The notes beneath the pieces were generated by a model, which worked only from the letters and a program-made list of their open reading frames with translations, did no database searches and was not told where the DNA came from. From the NCBI GenBank assembly GCA_963724325.1, contig CAVRUH010000005.1, positions 160,001 through 224,000 on the forward strand: a DNA stretch of 64,000 nt, in the 5' to 3' direction. The stretch comes from Waddliaceae bacterium. Its GTDB lineage: Bacteria > Chlamydiota > Chlamydiia > Chlamydiales > Waddliaceae. Within the stretch, counting starts at the first letter, position 1; every line of letters begins with the position of its first letter. Of this stretch, positions 36,973-40,517 are shown in pieces. A program made the position numbers and the translations under genes.

Positions 36973-37152
36973 ATGGGATCGCAATACGTCAAATCAAAAA
37001 TTATTCACGCCGAAACTAAGATGCCCAGTGATAGTGGTGGAGAAGGCAAACCACATCCTCGTTGCCTTGCAACGGTACCAGGAAATATCGAAGAATTAAT
37101 TAACCAATTTAAAATGCAAGAAAAAGAGATCTGCTCAGGCTCTCAAAAATAG
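36973..37152 (+). CDS. 59-aa peptide, putative RiPP precursor
   Basis: TAGGAG RBS before ATG 36973; first gene of a methyltransferase/ABC/rSAM/GNAT operon. Confidence 0.6.
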   Translation: MGSQYVKSKIIHAETKMPSDSGGEGKPHPRCLATVPGNIEELINQFKMQEKEICSGSQK

Positions 37153-37164
37153 TTTTTGTTTATA

Positions 37165-37192
37165 TGGTCATGATTCTGATGAATCATGACCA
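37165..37192 (+). promoter_or_regulatory. Perfect 12-bp stem-loop between the peptide gene and the methyltransferase
   Basis: TGGTCATGATTC-tgat-GAATCATGACCA. Confidence 0.7.
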
Positions 37193-37249
37193 ATAAATTC
37201 TATAGGTGTTATAAGAAGATTTAATAGTAGTTTATTATTGGGTTTCAAG

Positions 37250-38032
37250 ATGAATTTAATATCAAAAATTAGCATTGTAGGGAGAGGGATTGATCCTTCA
37301 AAACATTTAAGCCTGGCAGCCGTCAACGCTCTCAAATCGGCAGATAAGATCATAGGCATCGAATCTGAAAAGGAATTTTGGGAGGAACTTCAAAAGGAAT
37401 ATGGAATTGGCGATGTAGAAGATATGGCTAGTCTTTATAACAGTCAGGATAAGGACATGATTAATTATCATCGATTTGTTGACCATGTCCTTTCTCTATT
37501 GCCCAATTTTAACCACTTAGCGCTACTTGTTGCAGGACATCCAAGAATCGGTGTTACTTTTATTGAATTATTAAAAAAGAATGCACCCGCGAATTTACAG
37601 ATTAATATTATCGAGGGCATTTCAAGCTTTGATGTCATGATAAACTATCTAGAAATAGATCCTCTTGAAAAAGGTACCGTTATTGTAGATGCCAACCGGT
37701 TATTACTTTTTCAATATAAATTAGAACCCTCCCTTTCATACTTTATTTATCACGTATGTTCTATTGGAAATTCAACAACTAATTTTGTCGATCCCTCTTC
37801 AGGGAATCGGCTTGATCTTCTTAAAAATTATTTGATGAAATACTATTCCAAAGATAAAGAAATTTTACTATGCAGAGCCTCAAATGGGAAAAATGAAAGT
37901 TCATCATTGGTCCGTAGTACGATTGCCGAATTAGAGGCATGTACATCAAAAATCGATTATAGCACAACCTTGTATTTACCTGGTGAAAACCCCAAACAGT
38001 TGGATTGGGCTTATTTGGAGTTGTTAAAATGA
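37250..38032 (+). CDS. Borosin-type (TP_methylase fold) SAM-dependent methyltransferase
   Basis: IVGRGI...HLSL, ADKI, AGHPRIG, IEGISSFD, LEIDP, DANRLL, YHVCSIG and STTLYLP match the OphMA/SonM motif order. Confidence 0.75.
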   Translation: MNLISKISIVGRGIDPSKHLSLAAVNALKSADKIIGIESEKEFWEELQKEYGIGDVEDMASLYNSQDKDMINYHRFVDHVLSLLPNFNHLALLVAGHPRIGVTFIELLKKNAPANLQINIIEGISSFDVMINYLEIDPLEKGTVIVDANRLLLFQYKLEPSLSYFIYHVCSIGNSTTNFVDPSSGNRLDLLKNYLMKYYSKDKEILLCRASNGKNESSSLVRSTIAELEACTSKIDYSTTLYLPGENPKQLDWAYLELLK

Positions 38033-39405
38033 ATTCTATGAAAATACTGCATTGTATTTTAAACAATAAATGGATTAAAGCAGTACTGCTCATAACCGTG
38101 CTGCAACAACTTTTAGTAGCTGGAGGCACCTATTTTTTAGGAGAACTTGTCAGACAATTTCCGATCCAAGGATTTCAACTCAGTTCAGCCATAATTTTAT
38201 TTTTTTGTATCTTTTTACCAGGGACTATAGTTCATTACTGGATCGTTTGGTGCTCCGTACGGGCATGCAAACTAGCACAGTTGAATTATCTTAACGAATA
38301 TATCCAGACAAACTATAATCACCCCACACATTGGCGTAACGAAAAGTCTAAACAACAACGACATGATATCATGTGTCGTGGAGGCCAAGAAACAATTCAA
38401 TCTACGGTCTATTTTTTTGCAGATTTGACTGCAACTGGGCTGAATATCATTTTGAATACTATTTCTATTATTCTTGTTACTGATTTAACGCTGGGCATTG
38501 TCATCGTTTTAGCAGGGCTTTCAGGATTAACAATTATCTATTTTTCAGGGACAAAAATAGCAGATAGCAGTCGGGATGAAATGCTATCTGAAAATCGACT
38601 GAATGCACATATGAGTCGAAGCTGGGATAATATTGTTTTAGGAAATCAATTATTTTTTGACCGATGGAAGAAACATTTTAATGATTTATTCTCTGTTACA
38701 GAAAAAGCTTCTCTAGAGGTAGTCAAAAAAAGAGATTGGGCGATCTCAGTTGCGGGTTTAATCACAAACGGTCTTGTCCTTGGAAGCGCAATATTTCTTG
38801 CTTGGCTGAACCAAGAAAATGCTGGTTTTGTTTTAGCTATTCTTGTGATGCTACCTAGAAGCCTTCAAATTGTTATGCATATTCAGATCATACAAAACTA
38901 CGTCGCACAATGGAAAACAATCAGAGAAAAATTAGTTGTTACAAATGAAAGCCTTCTAACACCAGAGTCTATAGATCTAAGTTCCTTAATTCAAGACGAC
39001 AATATTCTAATTAAATCGGGTGAGCAAAATCATTCTGTTAGAGAAATTGACAATCTTATTACTAACAACAAAACAGGTCGTTTCACCATTACAGGACCCA
39101 ATGGAACAGGTAAGTCAAGTTTGTTATTAAAGTTAAAAAATAAATTTAGCTTATCTGCAACTTATCTTCCAGCCCATCATCAACTCATGCTTCGAGAAGC
39201 ACAATTAAGTCTTTCCACAGGAGAAATTGCTCTAGCGGCATTGAAAGACCTTGAAAAAGAAAATAATGGCATCTTATTTCTGGATGAATGGGATGCAAAC
39301 CTATCAGCAGAAAATCGTGTTGTTTTAGACCGCCTAATTGAGCAACTCAGTTTAGAAAGAGTCGTGGTGGAAATTAGACACACTATCGATTTTGTAAGAG
39401 TCTGA
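38029..39405 (+). CDS. Fused ABC exporter (TMD plus short NBD)
   Basis: About 6 TM segments, GPNGTGKS, LSTGE, LFLDEWDANL; ATGA overlap with the methyltransferase. Confidence 0.8.
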   Translation: MNSMKILHCILNNKWIKAVLLITVLQQLLVAGGTYFLGELVRQFPIQGFQLSSAIILFFCIFLPGTIVHYWIVWCSVRACKLAQLNYLNEYIQTNYNHPTHWRNEKSKQQRHDIMCRGGQETIQSTVYFFADLTATGLNIILNTISIILVTDLTLGIVIVLAGLSGLTIIYFSGTKIADSSRDEMLSENRLNAHMSRSWDNIVLGNQLFFDRWKKHFNDLFSVTEKASLEVVKKRDWAISVAGLITNGLVLGSAIFLAWLNQENAGFVLAILVMLPRSLQIVMHIQIIQNYVAQWKTIREKLVVTNESLLTPESIDLSSLIQDDNILIKSGEQNHSVREIDNLITNNKTGRFTITGPNGTGKSSLLLKLKNKFSLSATYLPAHHQLMLREAQLSLSTGEIALAALKDLEKENNGILFLDEWDANLSAENRVVLDRLIEQLSLERVVVEIRHTIDFVRV

Positions 39406-39408
39406 TGT

Positions 39409-40026
39409 ATGTCTAGTAATATTGCACAAACAATACTGGTTACAACAAAGTGTTCGGGTGGATGTCAACATTGTCCCTTTTCAAGTGCTGATATGGAACA
39501 ATTATTTTTGAAGTCGGAAACAATCCAAACAATAGTGAACCAAACTACTAGTGAGTTAGTTGTTCTCTCCGGAGGAGAGCCTTTTGAGCATCCAGATATT
39601 TCTTCAATTTTAACAGGCCTCAGCAGACAAAATAAGCCATTTAGGATTGCCACTGGAGGATTTCTAGATCTAAAGCAGTGGATTGACCAACTAAAACAGC
39701 TTAGTTATCCTTCGGGTCCACTTGAGGGCATATCGATGGGAACTGATGTGCTTAGTACACGTGTTAACAATAAAAGGTGGAATGCAATTTGGAAAAATAA
39801 CATTCAGCTACTTTCTGAATACCAAATTTCTTATTCTCTTACCTTTACAATAGGAAACGATTTGAATTTTACTCAAATGAATCTGCCAAACTGGATAGAT
39901 CTTTCTAAGAGCAAGCCAGAATTTCTCTACTTGAGGTACTCGCACGAACATTTGCGTAAAAAATGGATTCTGGATCTTAATAACGCTTTCGGCAACATTC
40001 CGATTATTCAGGACGACCTCTTATGA
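39409..40026 (+). CDS. Short radical SAM protein
   Basis: CSGGCQHC (CX3CX2C) and LSGGEPF motifs; no SPASM cysteines. Confidence 0.8.
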   Translation: MSSNIAQTILVTTKCSGGCQHCPFSSADMEQLFLKSETIQTIVNQTTSELVVLSGGEPFEHPDISSILTGLSRQNKPFRIATGGFLDLKQWIDQLKQLSYPSGPLEGISMGTDVLSTRVNNKRWNAIWKNNIQLLSEYQISYSLTFTIGNDLNFTQMNLPNWIDLSKSKPEFLYLRYSHEHLRKKWILDLNNAFGNIPIIQDDLL

Positions 40027-40517
40027 CCTCTATTCGTTTTCTACCGATTGATTTGCAAAAAAACACAGATCTTTGTGTTAAATTCCGAATTGATTCCTTT
40101 GTATGTGGCTTTGGTCATGCGGATTCTTTTTACAAAAATTGCGGAATCAACGGTGAGGATTATCTTAAGTGGCTTAAAAAAATTATGGAAGAGGACCAAC
40201 TTGCTGCTTTGCACATTTGGGAAGATAATCAAATCATTGGTCAACTCGAACTTACAATACGCAAAGATGAAAAAGATGAAAAATATGGCTATGTGAATCT
40301 TTTTTATCTAATTCCCGAAAAACGTGGGACAGGGATTGGAGACGTTATTCATGGTTATGTTGAAGACCATTATCGACGATTGGGTTATTCTGTGCTCCGC
40401 TTAACTGTAAGTTTTGAAAATGTCCGAGCCATTAAGTATTATATAAAACATGGATGGAAGGAAATAGGCCCTCGCTCAGATTTCCCAGGAACCTTTTACA
40501 TGGAAAAAAAGCTTTGA
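40023..40517 (+). CDS. GNAT N-acetyltransferase
   Basis: FYLIPEKRGTGIG and NVRAIKYYIKHGW motifs; ATGA overlap. Confidence 0.88.
   Translation: MTSIRFLPIDLQKNTDLCVKFRIDSFVCGFGHADSFYKNCGINGEDYLKWLKKIMEEDQLAALHIWEDNQIIGQLELTIRKDEKDEKYGYVNLFYLIPEKRGTGIGDVIHGYVEDHYRRLGYSVLRLTVSFENVRAIKYYIKHGWKEIGPRSDFPGTFYMEKKL

Follow-up and report, generated by a model that had tools for sequence, protein, structure and literature searches.

A putative RiPP operon of a Waddliaceae bacterium and the widespread, uncharacterised family around its borosin-sister methyltransferase

The closest described systems to the operon reported here are the borosins, whose methyltransferases act on the peptide backbone. They include the split type IV pair SonM/SonA of Shewanella oneidensis (PDB 7LTC) and the fused enzymes OphMA, dbOphMA and MroMA, and a borosin-binding domain is found in most, not all, borosin types. 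Multi-core precursors are known from type V borosins such as RceA (10.1101/2021.12.24.474128), and borosin cores are described as having no conserved sequence (10.1101/2024.01.09.574750). The present operon lies in a stretch of 64,000 nt (the window) of Waddliaceae bacterium GCA_963724325.1, contig CAVRUH010000005.1, positions 160,001–224,000; all coordinates below are window positions. It consists of a gene for a 59-residue peptide followed by the genes of an S-adenosylmethionine (SAM)-dependent methyltransferase, an ATP-binding cassette (ABC) exporter, a radical SAM enzyme and a GNAT acetyltransferase. With respect to the features that define a peptide made by the ribosome and modified after translation (RiPP), a conserved and translated small precursor gene was found clustered with enzymes, and tailoring enzymes and a transporter are co-conserved with it. 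Judged from sequence, the operon family is a real, widespread and uncharacterised RiPP family, and the 59-residue peptide is very probably the substrate of the pathway.

The precursor did not match any family of Pfam or NCBIfam, and its conservation was studied in homologous loci. For this comparison, 40 metagenomic loci were added to the chlamydial ones, and 41 non-duplicate loci were counted after dropping duplicates (L029, L037, L049–L051, L065 and L069) and loci in which the start of the methyltransferase gene is missing (L010, L023, L024, L027, L028 and L067). Residues R30 and P36 were invariant in an alignment of 26 upstream peptides. The motif R-[CLQ]-[LMQI]-x-x-[VLIA]-P-x-[NDE]-[ILVF] was present within 600 nt upstream of the methyltransferase gene in 37 of the 41 loci, compared with 1 of 862 control windows. 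Since the R-x5-P pattern was derived from the same peptides and the 37/41 count is thus in-sample, held-out tests were run. With a profile of six chlamydial peptides, 10 of 33 other upstream windows reached 10 bits or more, as did none of 677 control windows. After removal of relatives more than 60% identical, each of the 36 peptides reached 9.7 bits or more, against 7.5 for the best of 800 controls. Nucleotide differences among nine close cores fell on codon positions 1, 2 and 3 in numbers of 139, 28 and 314. The pattern identifies the 59-codon reading frame, beyond chance, as a predicted precursor gene that is real, conserved and translated. The preliminary description of this DNA had proposed a RiPP layout of peptide, tailoring enzymes and exporter, and had asked for a neighbourhood search; synteny and the upstream peptide were indeed kept in the homologous operons.

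The precursor's N-terminal part varies from 9 to 87 residues across loci and the tail is likewise variable, so that site of modification and recognition element must both reside in the conserved mid-section. The shortest precursors have 43–46 residues, with a conserved part of about 18. The stretch behind P-R-C-L-x-x-V-P is likely to form an amphipathic helix. Because L062–L064 have a truncated helix, the R-x5-P segment would be the core, with the helix that follows as its handle. The motif unit is present two to three times in eight loci (L044, L047, L048, L055, L058, L062, L063 and L064), which is the layout of the type V borosins. Among the precursors with repeated units are the one encoded on a conjugative plasmid of Serratia liquefaciens and its close counterparts in metagenomes. 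On this plasmid (p2-125, L069, 6714–10665), the three-repeat precursor is followed by the methyltransferase, an HExxH protein, a 2-oxoglutarate (2OG)-Fe(II) oxygenase and a major facilitator superfamily (MFS) gene, and the cluster adjoins a recombinase and a Tn3 transposase; it is a cultivable source of the family. L044 likewise combines a three-repeat precursor with the methyltransferase, an HExxH protein and a 2OG-Fe(II) enzyme.

The methyltransferase was placed by sequence, fold and phylogeny. Searched singly, the window enzyme had 12 sequence matches in PDB, and every one was a borosin N-methyltransferase. With a profile of its clade, the best 25 PDB matches were borosin methyltransferases (E 2.5e-28 to 4.7e-20), and the next one was diphthine synthase at 1.9e-5. 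The structural model, with a predicted local distance difference test score (pLDDT) of 94.5, comprises the catalytic fold alone, and its listed fold matches were all borosins (MroMA, OphMA and SonM; query TM-score, TMq, 0.81–0.88). In the tree of 32 rows, from which the long-branch row L126 was left out, 13 clade rows grouped at 99/99 and 8 canonical-type borosin rows grouped separately at 99/94; both groups were sisters at 97/91, with the YabN domains as the next lineage out. A tetrapyrrole or rRNA methylase was considered and rejected, since grouping with CobA/CobI/CobJ/CobM gave p-AU 0.042 in the approximately unbiased test and the family scores were far below the cut-offs. Placement against CobA, CbiL and RsmI had been set beforehand as a test, and by tree, PDB matches and fold the enzyme came out nearer to the borosin N-methyltransferases. 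Two further TP-methylase genes of the same genome are RsmI-like by reading of their sequences.

Membership in YabN was also rejected, since the score was 56.7–57.8 bits against a cut-off of 525 and the enzyme has 260 residues with no MazG domain. The N-terminal domain of YabN (NF052436) has the P-G-H-P motif, like the window enzyme, but it is without the Y-H-x-C-S-x-G segment of the clade, which sides with the borosins in the tree. Some results tell against the placement as borosin sister. The canonical-type rows are uncharacterised homologues identified by their canonical motifs, SonM and OphMA themselves not being among the rows; grouping with the YabN N-terminal domains, at p-AU 0.059, fell short of rejection; and the best NCBIfam match of the enzyme was YabN (E 9e-16), far below its cut-off. 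With L126 included, the clade-plus-borosin branch had support of only about 53/72, and the branch adding L126 about 83/82. L126, from a Sinorhizobium medicae plasmid (3968–4798), is a highly divergent borosin-like methyltransferase whose long branch lies close to the borosin group's base; it keeps Arg, has RGHPG and WNAR, and adjoins an amidohydrolase and a DUF6065 protein.

The active site of the clade is rewired compared with that of SonM. Residues were mapped via HMMER alignments, and invariance was counted over the 62 aligned sequences of 83 homologues found. Y63, D69, Y73, D147, N149, R150, Y167, H168 and S171 were invariant in all 62. The clade shares with SonM/OphMA-type borosins the SAM-site motifs (GxG, GHP, G-I-S-S and T-L-Y-x-P) and both active-site tyrosines, Y63 (OphMA Y66, which we take to be SonM Y58) and Y73 (OphMA Y76, SonM Y71). 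Other SonM positions are changed: Gly97 is Arg (R99 in the window enzyme, near-invariant at 56/62), Glu146 is D147, Gln149 is Arg (R150) and Trp166-Gln167 is Tyr-His (Y167-H168). The YGHP, DCLFAD and WQ motifs are replaced by xGHPR, FDxMIND, DANR and YH. The residue before GHP was A, P, Q, L or S, the five commonest states, in 61/62, and Arg followed GHP in 56/62. In SonM, R67 networks with Q167, E146 and E173 (PMC8429565, PMC11751858); this network is altered throughout in the clade and the tyrosine pair is kept. The catalytic base of borosins "remains elusive" (PMC8429565).

Backbone N-methylation by this enzyme is weighed at about even chances, and several points pull against it. Asp69 occupies the position of SonM R67 and OphMA R72 in 62/62, where all 8 canonical-type rows have Arg, and in SonM the R67A variant is inactive and R67K about 100-fold slower (PMC8429565). 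The clade has also lost the partner of Arg67, Glu173 (Asn or Thr here, N174 in the window enzyme), and Tyr93 (Ala, Pro or Gln here, A95 in the window enzyme). In addition, SonM poorly tolerates charged residues at methylated positions (PMC11751858). The preliminary description had taken the protein for a borosin-type methyltransferase: its fold, nearest relatives and two tyrosines bear this out, and backbone N-methylation itself stays a conjecture. As the main rival reading, the same RiPP pathway might instead methylate elsewhere, at the Arg guanidinium, at the amine exposed when the leader is removed or, in the Cys subgroup, at the thiol, with Asp69 as anchor and the His168-Asp147 pair as base. 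The loss of the Arg essential in SonM and the gain of invariant Asp69, His168, Asn149 and Arg150 and near-invariant Arg99 would fit such a reaction, and so would a substrate with a fixed polar residue, set against borosin cores without conserved sequence (10.1101/2024.01.09.574750). We consider it possible but doubtful, since both backbone-binding tyrosines are kept in 62/62, five loci have a separate gene resembling protein arginine methyltransferases (PRMT) and Cys is missing from 17 of 36 cores. Complex prediction of the methyltransferase with peptide residues 18–59 and SAM gave 0.31 against a mark of 0.32 and was not used either way.

Compared with the borosins, the window operon resembles SonM/SonA in the fold and size of the methyltransferase and in having a discrete precursor gene adjoining the enzyme. 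The motif R-x5-P is fixed and lies mid-sequence here, whereas borosins have a variable C-terminal core, and the new family has a dedicated exporter and exchangeable tailoring enzymes. Judged from lengths and fold, neither precursor nor enzyme has a borosin-binding domain (five-helix bundle). Borosins without this domain occur in Legionellales (10.1101/2024.01.09.574750; class 4 in PMC11395268). Two Legionella plasmid loci (L070 and L071), which may represent the published system, were compared with the window. As in the window, a short precursor lacking the binding domain immediately precedes the methyltransferase, and a transporter is encoded close by. Their enzymes differ from the clade in that Arg, YGHP, DCLFAD and WQ are all retained, and they cluster with the canonical-type borosins; their peptides are unrelated and without the R-x5-P motif, and identity with these two loci was rejected. 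In two other Chlamydiota genomes, canonical-type borosin domains (Arg, YGHPG and WQ kept) are fused to about 550 further residues (L025, G349:C96; L026, G243:C94), and these group with an Azospirillum plasmid protein. No fused, longer form of the new methyltransferase was found among 7997 candidates of 511–2000 residues, which is weak evidence.

Although the system would operate like a split borosin with added tailoring, the enzyme is not filed as a borosin, because tree position, mining motifs and catalytic Arg all differ and the binding domain is absent. The comparisons indicate that it is borosin-like, in a sister clade of its own, and not a textbook split borosin. The split-borosin membership first proposed was consequently abandoned, the enzyme lying outside the sampled canonical-type borosins, with Asp at SonM Arg67 and without YGHP and DCLFAD. 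Since YGHP and DCLFAD are named as borosin-mining hidden Markov models (HMMs) (10.1101/2021.12.24.474128), mining based on them may miss the clade, as judged here by motif residues and not by HMM scores. In the main text of the 2024 borosin survey (10.1101/2024.01.09.574750), the terms Chlamyd-, Serratia, Bdellovibrio and HExxH do not appear, and in that of the 2021 survey (10.1101/2021.12.24.474128) Chlamyd-, Serratia and Bdellovibrio do not. No description of the peptide-methyltransferase family was found in the borosin and RiPP literature searched, although the survey supplements may list clade members; the survey datasets include 733 methyltransferases without assigned precursor (10.1101/2024.01.09.574750). 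The novelty in Chlamydiae suggested at first holds in that the family is undescribed in this literature, but it is not chlamydia-specific, and antiSMASH has been used to count RiPP-like clusters of Chlamydiae, in a text in which the word borosin does not occur (PMC9666466).

The layout of the operon is given in Table 1. The five reading frames, the ribosome-binding site and the gene overlaps were confirmed in the window sequence, as was the initial account of a small frame with a strong ribosome-binding site followed by four tightly coupled genes. Pfam matches were TP_methylase (E 9e-12), Radical_SAM (4e-11) and Acetyltransf_1 (6e-12).

Table 1. Features of the operon in the window.
Feature	Position	Strand	Description and basis
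Ribosome-binding site AGGAG	36963–36967	+	5 nt before precursor ATG; sequence
Precursor peptide gene, 59 aa	36973–37152	+	Variable N-terminus, conserved motif, variable tail; conservation across homologous loci
Conserved precursor unit, residues 29–46	37057–37110	+	P-R-C-L-x-x-V-P, then hydrophobic-repeat stretch; 26-peptide alignment
Stem-loop after precursor stop	37165–37192	+	Perfect 12-bp stem; inverted repeat in sequence
Borosin-sister SAM-dependent methyltransferase, TP-methylase fold, 260 aa	37250–38032	+	Sequence, fold, tree
Fused (type IV) ABC exporter, 458 aa	38029–39405	+	ATGA overlap; homologue profile
Minimal radical SAM enzyme, 205 aa	39409–40026	+	3-nt gap, CX3CX2C; Pfam, subfamily profile, model
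GNAT acetyltransferase, 164 aa	40023–40517	+	ATGA overlap with radical SAM gene; Pfam

The order peptide-methyltransferase-ABC-radical SAM is retained in homologous chlamydial loci, and in 11 loci with a visible peptide; these four genes are the conserved chlamydial unit. Over the 41 loci, an ABC gene was present in 17, an MFS gene in 12, this radical SAM gene in 12, HExxH type 1 in 11, HExxH type 2 in 4, a 2OG-Fe(II) gene in 8, a PRMT-like gene in 5 and the GNAT in 1, the window. The GNAT was absent from the 11 other radical SAM loci, each with 3.6–6 kb of sequence downstream of the methyltransferase, and a search of 300 further genomes of the order gave no close relative (best E 1.8e-7; 23–35% identity over partial coverage), while PDB gave two weak matches. 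As a core gene it was rejected on the 1/41 count; it is likely an accessory gene of the window copy, and acetylation or self-resistance, which the preliminary description had offered as its role, falls outside the conserved pathway. An ordinary split borosin with the GNAT as an integral tailoring or self-resistance step is very improbable. In its favour are the ATGA coupling to the radical SAM gene, the matching low GC (0.37, against 0.35–0.38 of the neighbouring operon genes) and the facts that some RiPPs are acetylated by GNATs and that borosin clusters can contain such genes; against it stand the single occurrence, the lack of close relatives in the order and the absence of the canonical borosin motifs.

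The HExxH proteins carry H-E-x-x-H plus P-W-R, and their Atlas neighbours are named HExxH beta-hydroxylases (0.94–0.96). Matches to TIGR04267, obtained in 5 of 9, were below the family cut-off; TIGR04267 proteins are alpha-ketoglutarate-dependent RiPP hydroxylases (PMC12636437), and the words methyltransferase and borosin are absent from that paper. Such proteins stand beside the same peptide and methyltransferase in related loci and not in the window. PRMT-like genes were found in L052, L057, L059, L063 and L064, and all 27 PDB matches of the L063 protein were eukaryotic PRMTs; this separate gene suggests that Arg side-chain methylation is the job of another enzyme. HExxH and PRMT-like partners belong to peptide-modifying families, which supports a peptide-modifying pathway. 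Radical SAM and HExxH genes never occurred in the same locus, although many contigs are short; since the radical SAM loci form one clade in a quick, midpoint-rooted tree, this exclusion counts as one evolutionary event. It is unlikely that the methyltransferase-like protein is a non-catalytic carrier presenting the precursor to partners without a recognition element of their own (radical SAM, HExxH and 2OG-Fe(II)). It is the sole enzyme common to all cluster types, the radical SAM enzyme has no RiPP recognition element (RRE) or extra domain, and SonM without Arg67 is inactive yet still binds peptide and S-adenosylhomocysteine (PMC8429565), but the kept SAM-site motifs and the new invariant polar pocket residues fit catalysis better than decay.

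The radical SAM enzyme belongs to a discrete subfamily: of 7998 candidates scored, 114 proteins had E <= 9e-17 and the following one 8e-4. The only conserved Cys residues in 98 sequences were C15, C19 and C22. The model (pLDDT 94.2) shows the core barrel only, ending after the core strands, with no SPASM/twitch domain. The best sequence match was the peptide epimerase YydG/EpeE (E 1.9e-7) and the best fold matches were the RiPP maturases SkfB and SuiB. These enzymes share 10–19% identity with the window protein and have 320–440 residues with auxiliary domains, and together with viperin, as the nearest solved relatives, they are too distant to assign the reaction. An Atlas search returned generic short radical SAM clusters only, and 15 viral matches covered the N-terminal half only (25–39% identity); no match was found in plasmids. 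With regard to sactipeptides and ranthipeptides, the auxiliary Fe-S domain is missing and a conserved precursor Cys is present, the latter in a single clade and so not independent: Arg-Cys was found in 11/11 radical SAM loci with a visible peptide, and Arg-Leu in 9/9 HExxH type 1 loci with a visible peptide. In the enteropeptin ring a Cys is joined to a neighbouring Arg-derived residue, which is a loose analogy only for the Arg-Cys here. Enteropeptins are KGR-family thiomorpholine sactipeptides with N-methylornithine (PMC13361665, PMC12395415); their enzyme type differs from the window radical SAM enzyme, and the window operon has no arginase.

The same radical SAM subfamily also occurs in a second precursor-bearing chlamydial cluster, which supports a RiPP role. 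This RiPP-like cluster, on the minus strand in L111 (G369:C65) and L112 (G201:C7), is without a borosin-like enzyme. It encodes a Cys-containing peptide of 26–30 residues with the motifs Y-x-K-P and T-C-Y-L, an RRE-like radical SAM protein of about 435 residues, a class I methyltransferase, a GNAT and an MFS transporter, which has a kinase-like extension in L112. Its 322-residue protein, with no NCBIfam match, is enolase-like by reading.

The ABC protein, a divergent type IV exporter, matched ABC models weakly (ABC_tran, E 0.017), and no membrane-domain family was matched at E 0.1. A profile of 17 exporter homologues matched type IV exporters over both domains, among them NdvA (E 3e-12), BmrA and bacteriocin transporters. 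Walker A, a signature-like S-x-G-E, Walker B/D-loop and H-switch are kept, and there is no C39 peptidase domain. The ATPase domain is unusually short, Walker A and the H-switch lying about 100 residues apart, and its catalytic motifs are invariant in the 17 homologues. L023 has a second, divergent ABC homologue.

A stem-loop (z -5.5) sits in the 97-nt gap between precursor and methyltransferase genes. A hairpin with z <= -2 followed the peptide gene in 18 of 31 loci, compared with none of 31 control stretches inside the methyltransferase gene. It likely stabilises or attenuates the transcript, by which precursor mRNA would be in excess. A hairpin after a short upstream reading frame is also compatible with attenuation, and from this a different picture can be drawn, in which the peptide serves as a regulatory leader, as a subunit of an enzyme or as a scaffold that is recycled, and a small molecule for export is what the enzymes modify. 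The resemblance of the radical SAM fold to viperin and BlsE, which act on nucleotides, a possible YabN kinship and the lack of a protease in the operon lean the same way. The motif, however, is conserved at the amino-acid level and stands in tandem in eight loci like multi-core precursors, the HExxH and PRMT-like partners modify peptides or proteins, and the nearest characterised enzymes are all peptide-acting, which makes a non-peptide product improbable.

In the RiPP pathway preferred here, a small modified peptide, derived by cleavage from the P-R-C-L-x-x-V-P region, is the likely exported product of the four-gene unit. The hairpin 3' of the precursor gene would provide surplus precursor mRNA. 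The methyltransferase would then bind the motif plus the following helix, with no need of a borosin-binding domain. Asp69 may pair with Arg30 of the peptide, so that the substrate would supply the positive charge or at least fix the register. Y63 and Y73 would hold the backbone carbonyls, and the new His168-Asp147 pair (Gln167-Glu146 in SonM) may serve as base, so that N-methylation would fall on one backbone amide, or on a few, close to the Arg. The minimal radical SAM enzyme would act on the same segment by hydrogen abstraction; the likeliest outcomes, indistinguishable here, are an epimerisation or a thioether to Cys31. Finally, a protease encoded elsewhere would free the core and the ABC protein would export it. 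In other lineages, HExxH-type or 2OG-Fe(II) oxidation or PRMT-like methylation would take the place of the radical SAM step, and the GNAT would be a local add-on. The product would probably serve in competition or signalling.

Certain observations fit this scheme poorly. The motif was not visible in four of the 41 loci: L017 (contig edge), L043 (degenerate), L059 and L068. Cys is also found without the radical SAM gene (L054, with 6 kb of downstream sequence), and the association between both has a single origin. Known thioether-forming enzymes rely on an auxiliary cluster, which the radical SAM enzyme does not have, and its fold is matched almost as closely by viperins and other enzymes with non-peptide substrates. 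There is no protease gene in the window operon; a peptidase M3 gene is present in L052.

More tentatively, at somewhat less than even chances, the family would represent a new RiPP class, in which a borosin-sister enzyme takes its catalytic Arg from the substrate or uses a His-Asp base for a novel methylation, with modular partners. The methyltransferase would then be sequence-specific, its tag portable and about 18 residues long, and the partners would be a minimal radical SAM enzyme without auxiliary cluster, forming a Cys cross-link, or HExxH, 2OG-Fe(II) and PRMT-like enzymes. With Arg changed to Asp, Gln to His, both tyrosines kept and an invariant substrate Arg, the clade offers a natural test of the amide-deprotonation question. 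The short, fixed and repeatable substrate motif means that the enzyme could serve as a tool for site-specific peptide methylation, and the radical SAM enzyme, with 205 residues, would be very small for a peptide modifier of its superfamily. Obligate intracellular environmental chlamydiae would thereby be given a defined exported natural product.

Members of the family occur in chlamydiae that live with hosts, in predatory bacteria of the Bdellovibrio type and on a conjugative plasmid of Serratia. The nearest named relatives of the methyltransferase are from Chlamydiota (a Parachlamydiales record, Parachlamydia and Waddliaceae proteins), and further named homologues are from Bdellovibrio, Serratia, Aeromonas, Nostoc and Paludibacterium; no relative was found in viral contigs or GenBank phages. 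Within the phylum, a methyltransferase match was found in 13 of 400 genomes, two of them being canonical-type fused borosins and several partial or broken, and the only further genome of the window bacterium's genus, 97% complete, gave no match. This patchy distribution suggests an accessory unit that is gained and lost. Broken or partial operon copies, with a truncated methyltransferase or stops in the radical SAM or ABC genes, in five chlamydial loci (L023, L024, L027, L028 and L113) point to repeated loss.

The GC content of the four enzyme and transporter genes is 35–38%, compared with 40% for the genome. A promoter scan gave 22 sites against 19.1 +/- 5.4 expected, and the candidate at 36901–36930 is therefore no evidence. 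Upstream of the operon lies a divergent SprT-like/DUF2786 gene (35073–36628, minus strand), and downstream a 930-residue gene, ankyrin-repeat-like by eye (41671–44463); neither was seen conserved beside homologous operons. Directly 3' of the GNAT, at 40549–41348 and with a GC of 30–32%, stands an MNT-HEPN pair (nucleotidyltransferase plus HI0074-type, type VII toxin-antitoxin-like), which may be part of the same acquired island as the operon.

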